Positions 11,719-40,303 of a stretch of DNA of 64,000 nt are shown piece by piece. A program made the translations under genes and the position numbers. The stretch spans positions 99,572,001 to 99,636,000 of the forward strand of contig OX597814.1 of NCBI GenBank assembly GCA_951406725.2, written 5' to 3'. Within the stretch, counting starts at the first letter, position 1; the number at the start of each line of letters is the position of its first letter. Source of the stretch: Octopus vulgaris. Lineage: Eukaryota. The notes below the pieces were generated by a model. That model did no database searches. It saw only the letters and a list, made by a program, of their open reading frames with translations, and was not told where the DNA came from.

Positions 11719-11755
11719 GGCGTAGGAGTGGCTGTGTGGTAAGTAGCTTGCTAAC
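11719..11755 (+). mobile_element. 5' part of a family-1 SINE interrupted by the retroelement array
   Basis: GGCGTAGGAGTGGCTGTGTGGTAAGTAGCTTGCTAAC matches the head of the SINE whose 5' end is at 51128 (minus strand). Confidence 0.9.
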
Positions 11756-12111
11756 TACGGTTTGGACGCGTTTTCTTCCCGGTAAGAGTTTTGCTGTGTT
11801 ATTAATTGTTGAATTCCTACTACTGAAAATTTGCCTTTAAACGTTGCTGAACTGTCTTGTTCTCCGGTTTTACCGGGAAATAATTGAATAATTTCTTACC
11901 GTTGAACTGTTAGCCACTGTGGCTTTTTATTTACGTGACTATATATAGTCCTGCCAGACTATTTTCGTGCCCCTCCCCCGAATGGGGGTGGGAATTGGAA
12001 TTTTTGAACTGCTTTTTTGAACTACTTTGGAAGAAAAACTTTCTATAGGTTTCCCAGTTTTGTGGGAAACCAATATTCGTAATTTTTGTGTTGTCTAATT
12101 TCAACAGAATA

Positions 12112-13514
12112 ATGTCTGTTGAAATTATTCACGAAAGTAGTGCTCTTGAGGAGAGCAATGTTAAAAAATTTTCTGAGGTAGCCGCAGTGGCTACCGAGAA
12201 GATTGACATCGATGTCAACCAGCTCGTCGAGCTATTTAAAAGAATGCAAGAGGAGGGTGGTGATGTTAAAATATCACCCTCCGCCAGTATCGTGGAGACC
12301 GAGAAGCGGACCGTAGTGTTTAAAACTTTCTGTCCACAAAGCAGAAGGTTCAAACACTTTGAAAAAAGCACCATCGAGAAATGCCTGTCCCCGATTTGGA
12401 AGGACATCGTGTACGTCGCCAGGGGACGGGCATATGGCACTGTGGATGTCCGCTTCTCGGGGGAAGAAATGGCCCGCGGGCATTCTGTGAACCCCCTAAA
12501 ACCAAGGAGGTGGTACTTTTTCCAAGCTATAGGGGACGCAGGTCGTCCCGGGTCAGGATTGTAGAAGCCCCGCCGGACGTAGATCCGGTAGAGGTAGTGG
12601 CCGCCCTGTTATATAAAAGGGCGGACAAAATAAAAATACTAGAAGTAACATGCTCTACCCCTCGATTTTGGCTCGGGCGTAACATTAATATATTAATTCA
12701 AGGAACAGCGGAGGACCTGCAGCTCCTTCCTGAGAGGGTGCTCGTGGGCGAGAACGTAGCCCTCAGGGTACAGGTCGAAGGCCGAAAACCCACCTGTTAC
12801 GCCTGCAGCAAAAAGGGCCACATTCGTGTAGACTGTCCAGACAAGCAAAAGAAACCGCAGACACCAGGCCCCTCAGATAATAAAAAAGTCCCTACCCTTG
12901 CAAACACACCTACCCCTACAAAAACAAAAATCCCACTCCTGCTGTTACGGTGCCAACCCCAAAACAGACTGAAGAAAAAAACCCAGCCCTCGCACTCACA
13001 AACCCCTACACTATTAAAACCTCCCACCCCCTAAAAACTGCGGCGCCTACCGAACAAACTATTGCTACCACAGACGATACCATGGAGGTATCAGAGGGGG
13101 GATTTACACCAGTTCGTAAAAGAATTCGTGCAGCATCCCCGTCCACATCCCCTACAAAAAATAATAAAAACAAAGACACACCACAGACACGGAAAAAAAA
13201 AATCCCGCTCAACTGGCCCAGAAAAAGAAGACAAAAAAGAAAATGAACTCATATTAATTGAATTCGACACACAAGACAAATACATAAACGATATTGTGGT
13301 TCAGCATCAGTCAGCAAGACTGTACAACAAATACAAAGATCGAAATAGACACGCGTGGATTGCGGAAACAACGTTCAAACAATTAAAAGACAGACACCCA
13401 AACGCCATCCGGCATATCGCGAACTTGCCGGACTATCTGAAGAAAGAGGAGAAAGAAGGGGCCCACAAACGTGTGGTGAGGTCGGCCCCCACCTCTCCAA
13501 CGAAATGTAAGTAG
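12112..13514 (+). CDS. A1 ORF1, gag-like nucleic-acid-binding protein with zinc knuckle (3 homopolymer frameshifts)
   Basis: CYACSKKGHIRVDC knuckle, P/T/K-rich linker; the frame fragments join at A-runs. Confidence 0.85.
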
Positions 13515-13530
13515 AACCTTTACTTTTGTA

Positions 13531-16500
13531 ATGGCTTCGCTTAACCTTGGTTGTTTAAATGTACGTGGTCTGAGTTCGAAGTGGAAGCAGGCTTGTTTCC
13601 TCGACGACCTCAGATCACATGATATACATGTGATGGTTGCTACAGAGACCAAGCTGGACAGCCTACAAACCTTCTCGCTTCTCCTGAATGGCTACGAGAA
13701 AATCATGTCTCCTGGCCAGACCGGAGGGCGAGGGGGCGTAGTGGTACTGATCCGTAAAGACTTGGCTCTACAGACAAGTACAGTCTATGTAGACCCAGAA
13801 GGTGGGCTGGTCGTCCTTGATGTGACATACAGCAGTAAGGCCTTCAGGTTGATCGGACTCTATGCACCTTGTGCTAGAGGTTTCCAAACTGATTTTTATC
13901 GGCGCCTAGAGGGCTTTCTCGTGACGTCGAAGACTTTAGTGATATTAGGGGACTTTAATGCTATCGTTGACGTACACATCGATAGCGTTGGCTCGATCTA
14001 TAGGAAAGTGAACTCACGTCTCGTGGATCTGCTTAAGCGGTTTCAGCTAGCAGATCGTTACAGACTTGACCATCCGAACGTCCCAGAGTGGACCTGGATG
14101 AGTGGCGACGGAAGGTTCAAGTCTTATCTAGACAGGATAGTGATAAGAACTAGAGATAAGTCTAGTTTTAGTTGTCCACAGCTCGTCCAGGTGCCCTATA
14201 CTGACCATAGAATGGTCACGTGTAGACTGGACATAGATAGCACACTTAAGATAGGAACCGGCTACTGGAAGCTGAACAAGTCTATTTTGACACACGAGGC
14301 ATACCGTAGCCGGATTAAGGTGTTAGTGCAGAGGGCGTTAACCGGAGCCGTGGTTAATAACCGGTGGTGGTTCACCCTCAAAAGAGCCATTCGATTCGAG
14401 TCCATTAGATTTAGTAAACAACTAAGACTAGATAGGGCTAGAATAGAAGGGCAACTAGTTAAGAACTTAGAGGAGGCGTTGAGGTTGGGCTCTGCATCTC
14501 ACATTTTAGCGGCGAGAACGGCATTAGACCGTCACCTCAAAACCAAACATGAGGGATGTAGAGTCCGGGCTAAAGTACGAGCATTGGGCCGTGAGGGAAT
14601 TAATGTTGCCGGATGGGCCCGTACGATAGAAACACAGCGTGGAAACGATGCCACAATTGGGTCTCTTGTTGATGAAAACGGATGCACGATCAAGAAGCGG
14701 GACGAGATGTGTGAGGCACTCCACAAGCACTTCGCCGAGTTGTTCGGGAGGAGCGGGACGCTGGATCATGGTGAGGCCCTTAGGGACTTCCTGTCTGGTG
14801 GCCCGCGCCTCTCGACACGAGAGGCTGAGTGCTGTGAAGGGCCAATCACAGCCGAGGAAGTAATCGAGGTGTTGGGCAAGTGCCCCGGGGAGAAGTCGCC
14901 GGGTCTCGATGGTCTGCCCTATGAATTTTATAGAAGTATGCCAAACTTGTTCGTGCACCTGCTGGCTAGCGTCTACGCCAACTGGCAGCAGAATGGGAGA
15001 ATTCCCAAGTCTGCGAGCCGGGGGCGGTGACCTTGATCAGGAAGGACCCGAACAAGGGGGACGAGATAGGGAACTTCAGGCCCATAACTCTGTTAAACAC
15101 AGAGTTAAAGATTCTGGCCAAGGTGCTAGCAAAAGGTTGGCGCGGGTCGTGGACAAACTTGTCGGGGAAGCGCAAACGTGCGCTATCCCCGGCAGAACGA
15201 TCCACGACAATCTCCACCTTATACGCTACTCCTTAGAGAGGGTGGGGAAGCTTTCTGGCGCAGGGGGAGCACTGGTACATTTAGACCAGTCCAAAGCATT
15301 TGATAGGGTCGACCATCGGTACCTGGCGGCGGTCCTCGGAGAGGCTGGCCTAGGCCCGACCTTTCGAGGTTGGATCGCTGCTTTGTATAGCGACATCGAG
15401 TCTGTAGTCAAGGTGAACGGTTCCTTTTCGAAGCCGTTCAGGATCGAGCGTTCAGTTCGTCAAGGGTGTCCCCTGTCCTCGCTCCTATACGTATTGGCTC
15501 TTGAGCCTTTGCTGCGGAAGTTGGAGGCACTAGGGGCGCGCCGCATGATCTATGGTGTGGAAGAGGAGCTACGGCGTATGCGGATGACACCTCCATCATC
15601 GTGGCAGACGAAGGCCAGCTTCCAGTGGTGGAAGAGGCCATAAAAAGCTACGAGGCGGTGGCAGGAGCAAAGGTTAACAAGGACAAGTCGGTCGGTTTGC
15701 AACTCGGCACCTGGAGGGGCAAGCCGATGCCGTCCAATAACGTCGTAGGGCGTTGGACGGAAGGTCCTGTTAAGCTGCTCGGAGTCTGGTTCGGGCCAGA
15801 CCTCCAGATTGAGAAAAATTGGAGTGAGGTGGCCAACAAGGTGACCGCTCTAACCCAGACCTGGTCTGGGCGGGCGTTATCCCTGCTAGGGAAGTCGGGG
15901 GTGGTGCAGATGTTTATAGCATCAGTAATCACCTACCGTCTGACCGTGGTGCCTTGCCCCGATTTGTGGGTGAACAAGTTGGAGAGAATCCTTTTCCGAT
16001 TTTTGTGGAAAGGAGGAAAGCCACTTGTAAAGCGCTCTGTCTGCTGCCAGAAACCACTAAAGGGTGGGCTAGGGATGCCTTGGCTGAGGATGCGAAAACT
16101 CGCGTTAAGGTTGAGGCACCTCTGGCTTTACCTGGATGGAGAGCAGGTGTGGTCGCCGCACGTCCGGTTCTACCTTCCCCAGTTAACATCCCTAACGGAC
16201 ATCGGTGCATGGATCAAGCGGAGACCTAAACTGAGTGAATGGCATTTGGAGTGCCGTCAGGCGCTCCAGCTACTATCTCGGGTGGGCAACGCCGGCAACA
16301 GGAGTTCCACCACGGATTTCTATAGCGGGTTAGTGGAGATTAAGTCCGAAGACGCCTTGGGGAGACCCTGGGCTACGATGAAAATCAGTTGATCAACCTG
16401 TTCCGGAGGACGTTCGGGCCGGGGTATCTGGATAATTACCAGAAATCCCTAGCCTGGCAATGTTTCCGTGCGGCTTTACCTGTTCGCGACAAGCTGTCAA

Positions 16501-16928
16501 GGCACGGTAGTGCCGTCTCGCCGACATGCCCGCGATGTGAGCAGAATAGGGAGACCGTCTTGCACGCATTCGTGGAGTGTCCGGAGTTATCGGGACTGAT
16601 AGCTTTTGTAGAACAACTGTTGTCAGTGATGGGAAGAGTACAGCTATCAGCTGAGTCTATCATCGAGATTGTGCCGCCCCCTTTCCTTAACAGGGAAAGA
16701 AAGGCTTGTTTTTTCTGTGTAGTAGCCATATTGAAAGAAACAGTATGGAAGACGCGTACGAAAGGTATAGTGACAGGCACCTTTGTCTCCGGCCAGGGGT
16801 TGATTAACTTTTTTAGTTACCACCTCAGTAGCAAAATCAGGCTGGAGAAGAGGTGTCTGTCACAAGATATGTTTGTGAAAAGATGGAAGCCTGTGGCATA
16901 CAAGATGGGTATGTTTGGCACCAGGTAA
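13531..16928 (+). CDS. A1 ORF2, AP endonuclease + reverse transcriptase + C-terminal zinc-binding domain (4 homopolymer frameshifts)
   Basis: LNVRGL, ATETK, LGDFNA, YLDR, TDH, GYWKLN, KSPGLDGLPYEFY, FRPITLLN, LDQSKAFDRVDH, VRQGCPLS, AYADD, GGLGMP, CPRC..ETVLHAFVEC. Confidence 0.92.
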
Positions 16929-17171
16929 GTGTGACCGGATCAGAAAGTAAAGGTTCTACCCGGATGGCTGGGTGTCCGTCCTTCGACATGATCATTAATA
17001 TTTTTAAACATTGCCTTCGTAAAATTCATTGTTTATAATCTTATCCGTAATTTCATTCGAAAATTGTAACTGTGTTAAGCTACTTCACCCTTTATATTTG
17101 TCTGTCCTTGTTTGTCCCCTCTTTGTAAATGCCTAAATGGCAAATTATATGAAATAAAGTAGCTTGCTAAC

Positions 17172-19143
17172 TGCGCATGTGCGAGTCAGTGTTGTGTTTG
17201 CCACTGAAGCAGTGAAGATGTGCTTTTGAAGCCGTCTTGAATTGAAAACTTTGGAAGCCACATGTAAGGTAAGATTCTGTTTTCTGGGTCCAGTGGGAGT
17301 TTTTGTTGAGAATTATTTTTTACATGCAGGAAGTCCTACTGGATTCAGAATTCTGATTCTGCCGACATGTGGCAAATATATTTTTCTCGCTGAGAAAATT
17401 TTTGGGGCGTATCCGTCTTCGAATTGTATTGTGCTGTGAAGAACTACCAATTTTACACCAATTCATGTGGAAGTTGTGCGATCCTGGTTCGATTTAGGCC
17501 GGGAGTACCAAATGGCCAAAAGGATTTTGCTGCGTTTTTGACTTTCTTTTTAACTTTATTTGACTTTCTTTTCAACTTTATTTGACTCTCTCCTTTTTTC
17601 ATTGTGACTTTCTTCGGATTTCCTTTTCTTCTCGTCTTTTAGTTTTATTCTAAATACATTTATTTAAAAAAAAACAAAAAAACATGGCAACAAAAGAAAC
17701 CACCGCTTTGGAATGGGAGGTCATCCCACCCAAAACGTGGATTGAAAGTCTTGAGAAGAGGACGGTGGTCCTACGAACCTATTCTAGGTCGCGTGGAGCC
17801 ATTGCCCTCTTCGACAGGAATACTATAGAGAAAGAGTTGGGGGACTACCTGCCAACTATAAAATTTATTTCTCGGGGGACTAAATTTGTAACGGTGTGGT
17901 TGCTGTTTGGTACCCCCGAGGAAGCTAGCAGATTTGCTAGCGAGCCACTGGAGGGAGAGGAAATTTTGTTCCTCCTCTCGTATTGTGGCAGAAAAGTGAA
18001 AAGAGCCTGGGTGTGTGGGCTGCCCCCGGGCACGGAGGCGGAATGGATCGAGAAGACCATCCGGTGAGGCCTGGGGGATAGCGGACCCAGACTGCTGAGT
18101 GTGAAGGTGGCTCCCGCGGCCGCCTGGGAGGGGTCGAGGGCAACTTTAACCCTGTGGACACCGGTAGCCGTGGGAGAAATGAAATTCCCGGACTTCCTGA
18201 GAATGGCTGGGCACAGGTACCCGGTGATACTCGAGGGTCGCCCCCCCAAGTGTCACCTGTGCCTGAAGCCCGGACATATCAGGAGGAATTGTCCCAGGGG
18301 CCGTGGTGGTGCCCCGGAGCAGAGAGGGGAAAAGGCGCCCGCCGCCCCCTCATTGGAGGGGAGACGATGGAAGTCGTGGAGGAGGTTGCCTCCACGAAAA
18401 GAAAGAGAAAGGCGAGCAACAATGGTTGCCCGCCAAAGAACGCTCAGGGGGCGAAGGGGGATAGCAATCCCCCGTGTCTGGTGACGGAGTCCCCTGGGTC
18501 AGCAGTCTCCCCCAAAAGAAGGAGGAGAAAAAGGAGAGGTCGGACGACTGACGTTTCTGTGTCGCCGACGGAGCCGCGGGTGGGATGTGTGCCACCCGCG
18601 GACAAGGCTCCGCCAGTAGGAAGTGTGCCACTGACGGAGCAGTGTGAGGTCCCTCCCTGTGAAGAGGAGATGCTTCTCCTCCTTTACCACAAGGGAGAGG
18701 AGGTGGAAAGATTCTTGAATGGCTTGGGTGACCGAGAGCGTAAGGGCACGGTCGGCTCAAGGAGTCCGTTATGGCCTCCGCGGGTAGCTGCGGAAAAAAT
18801 AACAGAAGATACTTTGTCAAGGGTCGCAGAGACCTTTGAAAAGAAAGACTTTACTTTTCTCTTTGCAGGCCCTGACTTGTCGTCGCAGAGTTGTCTGCAG
18901 GCGGCAAGACAATTTGCTTCGGGGACCTGACGAGAAGAATTGTTGAACATTTTTTATGTAATTTGAATCATTGTTTATTGAATGTATTTATTGAAACATT
19001 GTTTTAGAGAAGCGAAAGTCGGCGGGCGCTTTCGACTTCTCCCATCACCATCTTCATCCACCACCACCATCATCCCTTAATGTCCTTGTCCAGCCCGTAG
19101 CTACTACTCTGTGTGCTGCCCTAGTGGCAAATTATATAAAATA
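17172..19143 (+). mobile_element. ORF1-only non-autonomous retroelement (element B) related to the Tx1 LINE
   Basis: Bounded by identical 15-bp target copies (17157-17171, 19144-19158); ORF1 homolog only; 3' end TGCC-N5-GGCAAATTATAT.AAATA shared with A. Confidence 0.85.
17684..18930 (+). pseudogene. Element B ORF1 with CCHC knuckle (in-frame TGA at 18065, frameshift near 18360)
   Basis: EKRTVV, TIEK.L, SY.GR, EGRPPKCHLCLKPGHIRRNC and TMEV align with A ORF1 but are strongly diverged. Confidence 0.8.
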
Positions 19144-19586
19144 AAGTAGCTTGCTAACCTCACTGACTGAAGAGTGACTTTGCTTACCTTACTACGGTTT
19201 GGACGCGTTTTCTTCCCGGTAAGAGTTTTGCTGTGTTGTTAATATTACTTCGTACCATCTGGAACTTGTTGAATTTTACTACTGAAAATTTGTTTTTGAA
19301 CGTTGTTGAACTGTCTTGTTCCTCGGTTTTACCGGGGAATAATTGGATAATTTGTTACTGTTGAACTGTTAGCCATAGTGGCTTTTTAATCTACGTGACT
19401 GTATATAGTCTTTCCAGACTATCTTCGTGCCCCTCCCCCGAATGGGGGGGGGGAATTAAACCTAATTTTTGAAATGCTTTTTACCACTCATTGAACTGGA
19501 AGAAAAACTTTTTATAGGTTTCCCAGTTTTGTGGGAAACCAATATTTGTATTTTTTGTGTTGTCTATTACTAATTTCAACAGAATA

Positions 19587-21002
19587 ATGTCTGTTGAGAT
19601 TATCCACGAAAATAGTGCTCTAGAGGAAAGCAATGTTGATAATTGTAGTAAAAAATTGTCGGCGGTAGCCGCAGTGGCAACCGAGAACATTGACATCAAT
19701 GTCAATCAGCTCGTCGAACTATTGAAAAGAATGAAAGAGGAGGGTGGTGATGTTAAAATATCACCCTCCGCCAGTATCGTGGAGACTGAGAAGCGGACCG
19801 TAGTGTTTAAAACCTTCTGTCCACAAAGCAGAAGCTTCAAACACTTTGAAAAGAATACTATCGAGAAATGCCTGTCCCCGATTTGGAAGGACATTGTGTA
19901 CGTCGCCAGGGGAGGGGCATATGACACTGTGGAGGTCCGCTTCTCGGGGGAAGAGGTGGCCCGCAGGCATTCTGTGAATCCCCTAAAAACTAAGGAGGTG
20001 GTACTTCTGCTAACCTATAGGGGACGCAGGACGTCCCGGGTCAGGATTGCAGAAGCACCGCCGGAAGTACATCCTGTAGAGGTAGTGGCCGCCCAGTTAT
20101 ATAAAAAGACGGACAAAATTAAAATATTACAGGTAACATGCTCTGTCCCTCAATATTGGCTTGGGCGAGACATTAATGTAATAATTCAAGGAACACAGGA
20201 GGACCTGCAGGTCCTTCCTGAGAGGGTGCTCGTGGGCGAGAATGTTGCCCTCAGGGTACAGGTCGAAGGCTGAAAACCCACCTGTTACGCCTGCGGCAAA
20301 AAGGACCACATTCGTGTAGACTGTCCAGACAAGCAAAAGAAACCGCAGACTCCAGGCCCCTCAGATAATAACAAAATCCCTACCCTTGCAAACTCACCTA
20401 CCCCTACAAAAAACAAAAAGTCCCACTCATGCTGTTACGGTGCCAACCCCAAAACAAACTGACAAAAAAACCCAGCCCTTGCACTCACAACCCCATCATT
20501 ATTAAAACTTCCCATCCCCTTAAAAACTGCGGCGCCTACTGAACAAAATATTGCTACGCCAGACGATACCATGGAGGTATCAGAGGGGGGATTTACAAAA
20601 GTTCGTAAAAGAACTCGTGCATCATCCCCGTCAACATCCCCTACAAAAAATAATAAAAACAAAGACACACCACAGACACCAAAAAAAAAATCCTGCCCAA
20701 CTGGCCCAGAAAAAGAAGACAAAGAAAATGAACTCATATTAATTGAATATGATACACAAAACAAATATATAAACGATATTGTGGTTCCGCATCACACAGC
20801 AAGACTGTACAACAAACACAAAGATCGAAACGAAAGATGTGCGTGGATTGCGGAAATAACGTTCAAACAATTAAAAGACAGACACCCAAAGGCCATCCGG
20901 CGTATCGCGAACTTGCCGGACTATCTGAAGAAGGAGGAGAAAGAAGGGGCCCACAAATGTGTGGTGAGGTCGGCCCCAACCTCTGCAACGAAATGTAAGT
21001 AG
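19587..21002 (+). pseudogene. A2 ORF1, disrupted
   Basis: Highly similar to A1 ORF1; CGA>TGA at 20271 just before the knuckle. Confidence 0.85.
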
Positions 21003-21019
21003 AACTTTTACGTTTTGTA

Positions 21020-24000
21020 ATGGGTTCTCTTAACCTTGGTTGTTTGAATATGCGTGGTCTGAGTTCGAAGTGGAAGCAGGCTTGTTTCCTCGACGACCTC
21101 AGATCACATGTGATGGTTGCTACAGAGACCAAGCTGGACAGCCTACAAACCTTTTCGCCTCTCCTGAATGGCTACGAGAAAATCATGTCTCCTGGCCAGA
21201 CCGGAGGGCGCGGGGGTGTAGTGGTACTGATCTGTAAAGACTTGGCTCTGCAGACAAGTACAGTCTATGTGGACCCAGAAGGTGGGCTGGCCGTCCTTGA
21301 TGTGACATACAGCAGTAAGGCCTTCAGGTTGATCGGACTCTATGCACCTTGTGCTAGAGGTTTCCAAACTGATTTTTATCGGCGCCTAGAGGGCTTTCTC
21401 GTGACGTTGAAGACTTTAGTAGTATTAGGGGACTTTAATGCTATCGTTGACGTACACATCGATAGCGTTGGCTCGATCCATAGGAAAGTGAACTCACGTC
21501 TCGTGGATCTACTTAAGCGGTTTCAGCTGGCAGATCGTTACAGACTTGACCATCCGAACGTCCCAGAGTGGACCTGGATGAGTGGCGACGGAAGGTTCAA
21601 GTCTTATCTAGACAGGATAGTGATAAGAACTAGAGATAAGTCTAGTTTTAGTTGTCCACAGCTCGTCCAGGTGCCCTATACTGACCATAGAATGGTCAAG
21701 TGTAGACTGGACATAGATAGCACACTTAAGATAGGAACCGGCTACTGGAAGCTGAACAAGTCTATTTTGACTCGCGAGGCATACCGTAGCCGGATTAAGG
21801 AGTTAGTGCAGAGGGCGTTAACCGGAGCCGTGGTTAATAACCGGTGGTGGTTCGCCCTCAAAAGAGCCATTCGATTCGTGTCCATTAGATTTAGTAAACA
21901 ACTAAGACTAGATAGGGCTAGAATAGAAGGGCAACTAGTTAAGAACTTAGAGGAGGCGTTGAGGTTGGGCTCTGCATCTCATATTTTAGCGGCGAGAACG
22001 GCATTAGACCGTCACCTCAAAACCAAACATGAGGGATGTAGAGTTCGGGCTAAAGTACGAGCATTGGGCCGTGAGGGAATTAATGTTGCCGGATGGGCCC
22101 GTACGATAGAAACACAGCGTGGCAACAATGCTACAATTGAGTCTCTTGTTGATGAAAACGGATGCTCGGTCAAGAAGCGGGACGAGATGTGTGAGGCACT
22201 TCACAAGCACTTCGCCGAGTTGTTCGGGAGGAGCGGGACGCTGGATCATGGTGAGGCCCTTAGGGACTTCCTGTCTTGTGTCCCGCGTCTCTAGACACGA
22301 GAGGCTGAGTGCTGTGAAGAGCCAATCACAGCCGAGGAAGTAATCGAGGTGCCCCGGGGAGAAGTCGCCGGGTCTCGATGGGCTGCCCTATGAATTTTAT
22401 AAAAGTATGCCAGACTTGTTCGGGCACCTGCTGGCTAGCGTCTACGCCAACTGGCAGCAGAATGGGAGAATTCTCAAGTCTGCGAGCCGGGGGTGGGGTG
22501 ACGTTGATCAGGAAGGACCCGAGCAAGGGGGACGAGATAGGGAACTTCATGCCCATAACTCTGCTGAGTTAAAGATTCTGGCCAAAGTGCTAGCAAAAAC
22601 GTTGGCGCGGGTCGTGGACAAACTTGTCGGGGAAGCGCAAACGTGCGCTATCCCTGGCAGAACGATCCACGATAATTCCGCCTTATACGCTACTCCTTAG
22701 AGAGGGTGGGGAAGCTTTCTGGCGCAGGGGGAGCACTGGTACATTTAGACCAGTCCAAAGCATTTGAAAGGGTCGACCATCGGTACTTGGCGGCGGTCCT
22801 CGGAGAGGCTGGCCTAGGCCCGACCTTTTGAGGTTGGATCGCTGCTTTGTATAGCGACATCGAGTCTGTAGTCAAGGTGAACGGTTTCTTTTCGAAGCCG
22901 TTCATGATCGAGCGTTCAGTTCGTCAGGAGTGTCCCCTGTCCTCGCCCCTATACGTATTGACTCTTGAGCCTTTGCTGCGGAAGTTGGAGGCACTAGGGG
23001 GGGGGGGGGCACCGCATGATCTATGGTGTGGAAGAGGAACTACGGCGTATGCGGATGACACCTCCATCATCGTGGCAGATGAAGGCCAGCTTCCAGTCGT
23101 GGAAGAGGCCATCAAAAGCTACGAGGCGGTGACAGGAACAAAGGTTAACAAGGACAAGTCGGTCGGTTTGCAACTCGGCACCTGGAGGGATTAGCCGATG
23201 CCGTCTAATAACGTTGTGGGGCGTTGGACGGAAGGTCCTGTTAAGCTGCTCGGCGTCTGGATTGGCCCAGACCTCCAGATAGAGAAAAATTGGAGTGACG
23301 TGGCCAGCAAGGTGACCGCTCTAACCCAGACCTGGTCTGGGCGGGCGTTATCTCTGCTAGGGAAAGCAGAGGTGGTGCAGATGTTTATAGCATCCACTAA
23401 TCATCTACCGTCTGACCGTGGTGCCTTGCCCCGATTTGTGTCTGAACAAGTTGGAGAGAATCCTTTTCCGCTTTTTGTGGAAAGGAGGAAAGCCACTTGT
23501 AAAGCGCTCTGTCTGCTGCCAGAAACCTCTAAAGGGTGGGCTAGGGATGCCTTGGCTGAGGATGCGAAGACTCGCGTTAAGGTTGAGGCACCTTTGGCTT
23601 TACCTGAATGGAGAGCAGGTGTGGTCACCGCACGTCCGGTTCTACCTTCCCCAGTTAACATCCCTAACGGACATCAGTGTATGGATCAAGCGGAAACCTA
23701 AACTGGGTGAATGGCATTTGGAGTGCCGTCAGGCGCTCCAGCTACTCTCTCGGGCGGGCAACGCCTGCAACAAGAGTTCCACCACGGATTTCTATAGTGG
23801 GTTACTGGAACTTATGTCAGAAGACGCCTTAGGGGAAGCCCTGGGCTACGATGAAAATCAGTTGGTCAACCTGTTCCGGAGGACGTTCGGGCCGGGGTAT
23901 CTGGATAATTACCAGAAATCCCTGGCCTGGCAGTGTTTCCGTGCGGCTTTACCTGTTCGCGACAAGCTGTCAAGGCACAGAAGTGCCGTCTCGCCGACAT

Positions 24001-24401
24001 ACCCACGATGTGAGCAGGATAGGGAAACCGTCTTGCACGCATTCGTGGAGTGTCCGGAGTTATCGGGACTGATAGCTTTTGCCGAACAACTGTTGTCAAT
24101 GATGGGAAGAGTACAGCTATCAGCTGAGTCTATCATCGAGATTGTGCCGCTTCCTTTCCTTAACAGGGAAAGAAAGGCTTGTTTTTTCTGTGTAGTAGCC
24201 ATATTGAAAGAAACAGTATGGAAGACGCGCACGAAAGGTATAGTGACAGGCACCTTTGTCTCCGGCCAGGGGTTGATTAACTTTTTTAGTTACCACCTCA
24301 GTTGCAAAATCAGGCTGGAGAAGAGGTGTCTGTCACGAGATATGTTTGTGAAAAGATGGAAGCCTGTGGCATGCAAGCTGAGTATGTTTGGCACCAGGTA
24401 A
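21020..24401 (+). pseudogene. A2 ORF2, disrupted
   Basis: APE, RT and zinc motifs as in A1, with stops, deletions and KAFD>KAFE, QGC>QEC changes. Confidence 0.88.
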
Positions 24402-24633
24402 GTGTGACCGGATCAAAAAGTAAAGGTTCTACCCGGATGGCTGGGTGTCTGTCCTTCGACATGATCACTAAGTAATACTTTTAAACATTGTCTTCGTAAA
24501 GTTCATTGCTTATAATCTTATCCGTAATTTCATTCGAAAATTTTAACTGTGTTAAGCTACTTCACCCTTTATATCTGTCTGTCCTTGTTTGTCCCCTCTT
24601 TGTAAATGCCTAAATAGCAAATTATATGAAATA

Positions 24634-25017
24634 AAATAGCTTGCTTATGAACCACATGGTTCCGGGTTCAATCCCACTGCGTGGCACGTTCGGCAAGTGT
24701 CTTCTACTATAGCCTCGGACTAACGAAAGCCTTGTGAGTGGATTTGGTAGACGGAAACTGAAAGAAGCCTGTCGTGTATGTGTATACATGTATCTGTGTG
24801 AATATGTTTGTGTCTGTGTTTGTCCCCTCAACATCGCTTGACAAATGATACTGGTGTGTTTACGTCCCTGTAACTTAGCGGTTCGGCAAAAGAGACTGAT
24901 AGAATAAGTACTAGGCTTACAAAGAATAAGTCCTGGGGTCGATTTGCTCGACTAAAGGTGGTGCTCCAGCATGGCCACAGTTACATAACTGAAACAAGTA
25001 AAAAGAATAAAAGAGTA
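24634..25017 (+). mobile_element. 3' part of the interrupted family-1 SINE
   Basis: Resumes AAATAGCTTGCTTATGAACCACATGGTTCCGGGTTCAATCCC (B box) and continues through the family-1 tail. Confidence 0.92.
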
Positions 25018-31213: not shown

Positions 31214-32567
31214 CGTAGTTAAAAGTGAGTCACAAATACTAAATATTAATAGCGTTGTTTCTTTCACTGTAGTTATCATAATTATTATTCCTTTCATTTA
31301 CTGGAACATTTTCTTATATTTTCTTATTATTTTCGGACAGTATATATATGTCCTTAGCTACCTTAAAAATATAATATCACAGTTCCCTGAAATCCTTAGC
31401 ATAAAGTAGCCTCATGTGATATATGACTTCGCTTCGAAAACACCTATCGAGATATTACAAGATTTGCTCTTGCAATTCCGCTTTCCTTTATGAAATTTAA
31501 CGTTGACAATATTTCATGAACTTGAAAGCAAGTTTGAGGTAAATTAAAAAATGAATCACATGAATTTTTATTCATTTTCTTTTTTCTTTATTTTTTATTT
31601 TCGTTGATGCATTTTAACTTACAATAACCAAACATATTGGAAACAACGAAGGATTATATTTTTTATAAACTTAATGCACACAAATTTTATAAATATCAGT
31701 TTCAGTTTTCGGTGAAACACTAAGAATTTTCAGGCTGTGTATTAATCGAAACTTTCGATTCTCGTACTTGATTGGTATTTTATTACTAAAGGGCGTTCCC
31801 CACGCATGCATAATTGTCTTACTACGCCTAGCTATAAGAGGTGACAGTCTACAGAAGTATGGATAATAAGTGAACCTATACTATAATTGTTATGAGAATT
31901 AGCCCATCAGGAGGAAATTTTAGAGTAACAGCTTATATGCAATGCTTTTGGTAGAGGCAGTGAATCTCTAGTCAAATGCTGCGTGATAGATGAAAGAAAA
32001 ATTGTCATCCACGCTTTTATGGTTGATTAAATTAGACCGTAAGCAAATAACATTCATGACACCAACGGTATCACGGGACATGTATATGGACTCTGTTCAG
32101 GATATGTGTTCATATTGGGAAGGCAAATTGGCAAAGCATATACCAATGGCATGTTTGAATCTCATACCACTAGAGACGATTGATACAAATACCTCGAAGT
32201 CGACGAGAATATTGCATTAGGGATTCTGTGAGAAGAGCTTGAGTGATAAAAAGAATAATTCACCAAACTTTAAAATATTTTGAAAACCAGTGCTTGTAGT
32301 CAATAAAAAAAACGTATCGTTTGCAGTTATAGTGCTAGTACCAAAATTTGGTTTCTAGCATGGCATTTATGAAACTGAGTGACAAGCGAGAAACTCCTGG
32401 TCCTAAAATCAGATCACTGTAACTGCTTAATTTGGAATACCACATTAGATGGTATAACTGGTATGCGAGGAATGAAAACGGTCTTACCTTTACCACAACC
32501 AGTAAGGAATACTTACATATGCCTATGGAAAAGTCAGGTGCAAAGTCATGAGAACACTAAAGTACCC

Positions 32568-39389
<6,822 letters not shown>

Positions 39390-40303
39390 CCCAAGGAAAA
39401 TCATTAAATAGTGCAATACAGAAGAATTACTTCCCAATTAAACGACGCTACAGTAATGCTAGATTATTCACATTTGGTTGTACATTTGGTTAATGTAGAT
39501 GCTAGTTAGAGTTTAAGCTCTTGGCAGGCTTACCCAAACCAGATTGAGTGATAGTTAGAATCCAAACGAAGCGCAATCTACTTTCACCTCAATCAGAAAA
39601 CCAAATTGCTACGGTAACTGCAAAAAAAAGGTTGGACGAGCTAAGATCTGAAAATGATACGTGAAGGAAGAAACGGAATCAATCGGTCTCTTTTGGTCTG
39701 AAATCAAGGAGGTAGTCTAAGAAGGTATTTTTTGGAGTTCATCTCCCTTAGATATGTCTTTCCGGTAAATTTCTTAATTTTTTGCTAGATCGTTTACCAA
39801 AATGGAGGCGAACAACTTTCTCCATGTGATCAGCTTGAAAAATTAAGATTCTTGGATATTTTCCCACTCTTAACATTAGACCAATGGTAGCCTTAATTCA
39901 TAAATAAAGAAGACCCCTTTGAATGAACAGCACATGGAATCTACGTCTCCATACTTTCCATTTGTAATGACAAAATATGAAGTCCTAACGGAATTTACAT
40001 ACCATTGACAAGAAGCATTTCTACCACTTCTACACACCACTTTCCTTGGATGATGAAACTACAACACCCTATATATATTTTTACTTTTATTCCCTTATTT
40101 CCCCTTATGCTTCTTATTCCCATGCTTTTCCAAAATAACTCCATATATTGAACTCTACTATTTCCCCTTTATTTAATTATCTCATATCATCTCTAATAAA
40201 GGAAGACCCCTAATATCCGAGAAACATCTGTAAGACTAACTTTCTCTGTATAAATGTCCTGAAAATTCCACAAAGCCTTGGCTTTGTTGTCTCATTTTAT
40301 TTA

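Follow-up and report, generated by a model that had tools for sequence, protein, structure and literature searches.

Conserved complementarity between the start and the stop of ORF2, with an adjacent U1-type motif, in target-specific LINEs of Octopus vulgaris

RNA pairing over kilobase distances controls translation or replication in plus-strand viruses, in the yeast HAC1 mRNA (5' untranslated region (UTR) with intron) and in the retrotransposon Ty1 (CYC5/CYC3); to our knowledge, none of these pairings encloses exactly one open reading frame (ORF) of a long interspersed nuclear element (LINE) from its start to its stop. Here, complementarity of that kind is described for a family of bicistronic LINEs represented by copy A1 in a 64,000-nucleotide stretch of the Octopus vulgaris genome (contig OX597814.1, hereafter the window; source genome 2.8 Gb). 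The closest described systems, as they appear in excerpts of the sources cited, each resemble one aspect of these elements. In SART1, likewise a bicistronic non-LTR (long terminal repeat) element, ORF2 reinitiation depends on RNA structure where ORF1 meets ORF2, downstream of the overlapping stop-start (Kojima 2005, via the review PMC5972666), whereas in the octopus elements the pairing partner is the region of the ORF2 stop, at a distance of 3.4 kb, and a spacer is present in most families. The termination upstream ribosomal binding site (TURBS) of caliciviruses likewise controls expression of a downstream ORF through RNA close to the preceding stop, but it is local and requires UGGGA (PMC5972666); only 2 of the 50 octopus lineages defined below have TGGGA 100 nt or less from the ATG, which speaks against reinitiation of the TURBS type with its motif 1 upstream of the stop. 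In human cells, engineered intramolecular pairing of 20-30 bp brings the 3' end close to a stop and suppresses nonsense-mediated decay (NMD) (PMC2689704); the partner in these fold-backs sits beside the poly(A) signal, whereas the octopus pairing is natural, predicted, and about 200 nt from AATAAA. Finally, in the Ty1/Copia element EVD the structural gene (shGAG RNA) ends with a conserved 5' splice/U1 site, but EVD has LTRs, a genuine short intron and premature termination, and the excerpt describes no long-range duplex (PMC5580714); no splicing was seen in the octopus LINEs.

Comparison across related families shows that the two ends of ORF2, start and stop, are linked by conserved complementarity, next to which lies a U1-type motif. 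The predicted stem has an outer part, in which the ORF1 tail and the spacer pair with the 3' UTR, and an inner part, in which the first ORF2 codons pair with the last codons and the stop; the final 200-300 nt, terminating in AATAAA, remain outside it. The features concerned, in window coordinates, are as follows.

11756 to 17156, forward strand: LINE copy A1, with a zinc-knuckle ORF1 and an ORF2 carrying APE endonuclease, reverse transcriptase (RT) and zf domains, broken by frameshifts.
12112 to 13514, forward strand: ORF1 of A1, frameshifted in this copy, stop TAG at 13512-13514.
13507 to 13512, forward strand: GTAAGT motif next to the stem, conserved in related lineages.
13511 to 13527, forward strand: 5' arm of the outer helix, covering the ORF1 stop and spacer.
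13531 to 16928, forward strand: ORF2 of A1, ATG at 13531, stop TAA at 16926-16928, broken in A1, predicted loop of the stem.
13538 to 13564, forward strand: predicted 5' strand of the inner helix, ORF2 codons 3-11.
16909 to 16931, forward strand: predicted 3' strand of the inner helix, final ORF2 codons and stop, containing a second GTAAGT at 16925.
16943 to 16959, forward strand: 3' arm of the outer helix, pairing with 13511-13527.
17153 to 17158, forward strand: AATAAA at the 3' end of A1, overlapping the target-site duplication, 193 nt past the 3' arm.
19159 to 24633, forward strand: LINE copy A2, 92.7% identical to A1.
20999 to 21017, forward strand: 5' arm of the A2 outer helix, with GTAAGT at 20995 and ATG at 21020.
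24414 to 24432, forward strand: 3' arm of the A2 outer helix, the ORF2 stop being at 24399-24401.

The first-pass annotation of the window had reported that 13511-13526 and 16944-16959 are exact reverse complements over 16 nt, and this holds. It is the longest exact inverted repeat of A1 (the next is 13 nt), a U-G pair lengthens it to 17 bp (13511-13527/16943-16959), its 3' arm begins 15 nt past the ORF2 stop, and an exact non-overlapping inverted repeat of at least 16 nt appears anywhere in 6 of 1500 order-3 Markov sequences of element length. The 19-nt version ascribed to A2 is as described, with one G-U pair and one G-A mismatch. Both ends are present in 12 family-A copies, of which 10 show at least 15 bp of pairing between the arms, G-U included; A2 has its mismatch and L259 a deletion. 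In the best-scoring 30 junction copies, the spacer of A1 recurs in 18 and a one-base-longer type, which pairs over 19 bp including two G-U, in 7. The earlier account thus stands for the repeat itself, which proves to be the outer helix of a bigger predicted stem whose inner helix, like the adjacent U1-type GTAAGT, was absent from it.

Related families were gathered by protein and pattern searches, and 100 loci were hand-picked for variety. With A1 and A2 included, 98 of 102 loci retained the ORF2 start (three are 5' truncated and L222 gave no match), and greedy clustering at 90% yielded 50 lineages, 25 of them with both ends; the clustering is imperfect, L154 and L249 having been split and L245 merged with A, and the lineages are mutually related, so that the counts below are not independent and should not be read as probabilities. 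When the region from ATG-80 to +21 was hybridised with that from stop-21 to +70, against dinucleotide shuffles as the null, the ORF1-stop/ORF2-start region paired with the ORF2-stop/proximal 3' UTR region at z <= -2 in 19/25 lineages (median z -4.5), as against 0/24 for control windows from the interior of ORF2. The cognate 3' window ranked first in 13/25 lineages, and the cognate diagonal beat 20000 of 20000 permutations. The paired letters differ family by family, each family having its own complementary sequence. In three alignments, two-sided changes were found at 5/33 long-range pairs in the A group (where three relatives, for instance, have G-C in place of an A-U pair of A1), at 8/16 in a second group, where they are coding on both sides, and at 5/12 in a third, counts that are to be read with the caveat that the consensus structures were derived from the same alignments. 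Swapping partners lowered the paired fraction, the observed value being reached by 2, 0 and 5 of 2000 swaps in the three groups. The duplex looping out all of ORF2 that the first-pass annotation had suggested is therefore supported as a predicted, conserved structure by family-specific pairing and by the compensatory changes for which it had proposed to align family copies and related species.

Each part of the stem was also assessed by itself. The outer part alone reaches z <= -2 in 13/25 lineages, and the inner helix alone (ATG-3 to +21 with stop-21 to +12) does so in 16/25, extending to 15-17 bp in L143 and L100; the 3' partner is therefore tied to the ORF2 stop rather than placed anywhere in the 200-300 nt UTR. 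Minimum free energy folds of the whole ORF2 retained the stem in six of seven elements (A1, A2, L143, L098, L101 and L235). As regards anatomy, a second GTAAGT or GTAAG overlaps the ORF2 stop in the A group and in L159 and is paired in the inner helix (window 16925 and 24398; also L154, L159, L242, L245 and L249). The spacer between the ORFs ranges from 0 to about 70 nt among families, stop-start overlaps (ATGA, TAATG, TGATG) are seen at the ORF2 start in L101, L169, L143, L254 and L159, and open frames of 450-489 codons terminate at the ORF1 stop position in L033, L034, L038, L048, L049 and L107.

The GTAAGT of the A-type junction matches the 5' splice-site/U1 consensus. In 33/50 lineages GTRAG, mostly as A/G-GTAAGT, lies no more than 70 nt from the ORF2 ATG, as against 9, 2 and 11 of 50 in control windows. 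A stop codon occupies +6 to +8 in 24 of 33 motif sites. Reading the motif as a pure stop-codon cluster accounts for part of this pattern but not for the preceding G, which stands before TAAG in 33/46 cases and before other TAA in 16/55; the T at +6 is kept without a stop there in 9/33 sites. Depending on the family, the motif contains the ORF1 stop, follows it or precedes it (frameshifts of dead copies may contribute), and on this comparison the motif is independent of the ORF1 frame. The simplest reading of the conserved GTAAGT would be a U1 site. It is largely paired, meaning at 4 or more of its 6 nt with the 3' window, in just 9/23 lineages.

Taken as a whole, the family-wide complementarity predicts an RNA stem that encloses ORF2 and may act as a fold-back and translation gate for it, a proposal that we regard as the best reading and about as likely as not. 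The arrangement points to ribosomes because both partners sit where translation stops or starts, the 3' one at the ORF2 stop, the 5' one at the ORF1 stop and the ORF2 AUG; control of ORF2 reinitiation, one of the functions suggested in the first-pass annotation, would be compatible with this anatomy, as the AUG region pairs with the stop region in 16/25 lineages. The steps that we infer start from the observed complementarity, its position, its family-specific letters and the two-sided changes. Folding back would shorten the distance between the ORF1 stop and the 3' end from 3.6 kb to about 200 nt, so that termination of ORF1 would look normal and evade the NMD triggered by long 3' UTRs. The residual distance from the ORF1 stop to AATAAA in folded A is about 193 nt, near the 197-208 nt of B, an ORF1-only element described below. 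The stem would also conceal the ORF2 AUG region, which only a ribosome ending ORF1 at the stem base would open and use for reinitiation, yielding little ORF2p; a ribosome at the ORF2 stop would open the opposite strand and free ORF2p beside the unpaired 3' tail. A distinct nuclear role, protection of the intronless RNA, would fall to the U1-type site kept at the same spot.

Several points weigh against this proposal. The pairing is a prediction, and the consensus structures share their alignments with the changes counted. Six of 25 lineages miss z <= -2, these being single decayed copies; the inner helix of A1 is weak (z -0.7), the outer helix dominating there, and is strong in many relatives; the whole-ORF2 fold of L091 pairs other nearby segments instead; and when the A1 3' window was scanned across the element, the junction ranked fourth of 336 windows (the opposite scan ranked it first of 235). 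Pairing is stronger on the sense strand in 16/25 lineages (p 0.31, from a comparison of G-U asymmetry), which does not clearly set the two strands apart; the commonest A subtype needs two G-U to pair over 19 bp. A terminating ribosome would melt a helix that begins at the A stop codon, the engineered fold-backs tested place the poly(A) tail much nearer than 200 nt (PMC2689704, in excerpt), and gating of ORF2 by itself leaves the conservation of GTAAGT unexplained. Distant LINEs, moreover, manage without a stem. Of 80 metagenome loci, 32 have an ORF of at least 900 aa, and after removal of 11 at contig edges, the remaining 21 (24-30% identity) gave 0/21 at z <= -2 and two with GTRAG, from rough ATG calls and only 70 nt of UTR. 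Four closer metagenome relatives are fragments, and no relative was found in viral contigs. As far as tested, a stem in this position thus appears to be limited to the clade.

Among the alternatives, control in the nucleus fares best, and we consider it possible but rather unlikely as the main role. U1 bound to GTAAGT would block premature polyadenylation, the stem later masking the site so that full-length RNA leaves unspliced; or the stem would bridge the donor to an acceptor in the 3' UTR, ORF2 being spliced out to give an ORF1-only mRNA in the manner of copia-type Gag. The junction enrichment of GTRAG (33/50), the G before TAAG, the +6 T kept without a stop in 9/33 sites, the frame-independent placement of the ORF1 stop and the EVD precedent (PMC5580714, in excerpt) all speak for it, as do acceptor-like sites in the 3' UTR of 11/25 lineages. 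Yet only 9/23 motifs pair with the 3' window at 4 or more of their 6 nt, the motif doubles as a stop-codon cluster (24/33), A1 has no acceptor-like site, and L160 lacks any AG between the arms and AATAAA. Retroposed spliced copies were likewise not found: none of 17 matches shows the predicted junction of three families, and the spliced junction of family A gave 22 matches against 20 for a control, the sole A copy being unspliced. Splicing of L1 yields dead-end copies (PMC5860796, in excerpt). Contigs were examined from eight sequencing runs, whose RNA origin is assumed, and in 7/8 runs the contigs listed cross GTAAGT at 13507 unspliced, which is weak evidence as contigs drop rare forms; among the joints and loose ends listed for these contigs, none begins at that site.

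Some related signals were seen alongside these searches. A conserved acceptor-like stretch lies 30-60 nt past the 3' arm in microsatellite-targeting families (3' UTRs of L098, L100, L101, L091 and L174), and the 5'-truncated copies L183 and L186 start right at it. A 5' UTR intron (window 11782-12108) is suggested by a strong donor-like site near the 5' end of A together with an acceptor-like site immediately upstream of the ORF1 ATG; this candidate is read through unspliced in the listed contigs X1, X4 and X17.

Assembly of the ribonucleoprotein (RNP), an improbable principal role in our view, would have the stem hold the ORF1-coated 5' half, nascent ORF2p and the 3' tail together for cis preference or target-primed reverse transcription, or select full-length template, translation rate not being the target. 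The 3' partner at the ORF2 stop does leave the last 200-300 nt free, and cis preference had been proposed in the first-pass annotation; but ORF2p finishes at the 3' UTR even without a loop, and pairing of the AUG region would be unneeded. These two alternatives and translational gating are not mutually exclusive.

That the stem promotes template jumping by RT, yielding ORF1-only elements such as B, as the first-pass annotation had also ventured, is very improbable. High-copy ORF1-only families with the same target do exist, with at least 1319 first-look candidates, but the search for genomic copies with ORF2 deleted between the arms returned nothing (0 copies in which the end of the A ORF1 is followed within 60 nt by the A 3' UTR), and autonomous families would gain nothing by which such skipping could be selected. 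B as a deletion derivative of A is ruled out, its ORF1 being only about 26-32% identical to A-type ORF1 and its DNA unrelated beyond about 40 nt over the 3' end and target site (about 25 nt of it given as 3' end). Chance or compositional complementarity between a U-rich spacer and an A/G-rich UTR is scarcely credible, for although several outer arms are pyrimidine/purine runs and the sense strand is favoured in just 16/25 lineages (p 0.31), shuffles that keep dinucleotide composition are beaten in 19/25, cognate partners outdo non-cognate ones, and two-sided changes occur within coding sequence.

The genomic setting consists of A1, B and A2 arranged head to tail within a single site of a tRNA-like short interspersed nuclear element (SINE), split at 11755/24649, with a 15-nt target duplication between them.

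17157 to 17171, forward strand: 15-nt target-site duplication, other copies at 11741-11755 and 19144-19158, a variant at 24634.
17172 to 19143, forward strand: ORF1-only element B, same target site, without ORF2, no GTRAG near the stop.

The 5' end of A1 is about 35 nt short relative to A2. First-look searches of the genome gave at least 1457 candidates for the family-A 3' end and at least 566 for the junction; the target motif is common to 30/30 3' ends examined, 28/30 of which enter the SINE, and the 3' ends of other related families lie in microsatellites. B, a high-copy family that we take to be HAL1-like, keeps an intact ORF1 of 414-415 aa in several copies (window 17172-19143; for example G000:C1:223.69-223.71 Mb, L068-L090), and in 5/5 intact copies 197-208 nt separate the stop from AATAAA, with no motif. 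It builds tandem arrays with a 2 kb period, interleaved with A and other ORF1-like families at the same target. The SINE target at window 11739 is itself GTAAGTAG, identical in all 8 letters to the ORF1-end motif of family A; this match is probably a coincidence because microsatellite-targeting families also carry the motif. The 5' UTR of A contains a C-rich/G-rich hairpin (11975-11992 and 19432-19453), and elsewhere the window holds a mariner-type transposase fragment (PF01359, 9728-10450) and a (TA)n-rich microsatellite of about 7 kb (32440-39400).

In intact relatives, ORF2 carries domains of the APE endonuclease, RT and zf-RVT types (PF03372, PF00078, PF13966) and ORF1 a zf-CCHC zinc knuckle, and the nearest solved protein to ORF2 is L1 ORF2p (profile score 370 bits, against 142 bits for R2). 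An ORF2 with APE, RT and a C-terminal zinc-binding domain, an upstream ORF1, a 15-nt target duplication and no LTR place these elements in the L1 group, and specificity for a target sequence agrees with the Tx1 clade; A1 and A2 thus appear to be Tx1-type, target-specific L1-group LINEs, a placement made by domains and target specificity. Tx1 LINEs are likewise APE-RT elements specific for repeats and microsatellites, but neither such a stem nor a U1 site is described in the excerpt of PMC4494074. For O. vulgaris, 13 recently active L1-Tx1 families have been listed, and 'secondary structure' never occurs in the available text (PMC13282606). No LINE stem of this kind was found in the literature searched, which excluded Repbase, subscription papers and supplements. 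Long-range RNA pairing itself is known; what seems new is its occurrence in LINEs.

It is tempting, if doubtful, to go further: a clade of LINEs may zip the ORF2 start to its stop codon across 3.4 kb as a full-length sensor, in which only RNA with a complete ORF2 would fold, neutralising the exposed U1 site, rescuing the ORF1 stop from decay and letting ribosomes through singly. It has long been asked how bicistronic LINE RNAs persist with a stop 3-4 kb from the 3' end, how they yield very little ORF2p and how they favour their own RNA, and few cis elements that bear on these questions have been defined. RNA structure would here constrain both ends of the RT coding sequence, and a short element with natural compensatory variants in about 20 lineages, together with intact young copies, may make these questions directly testable.

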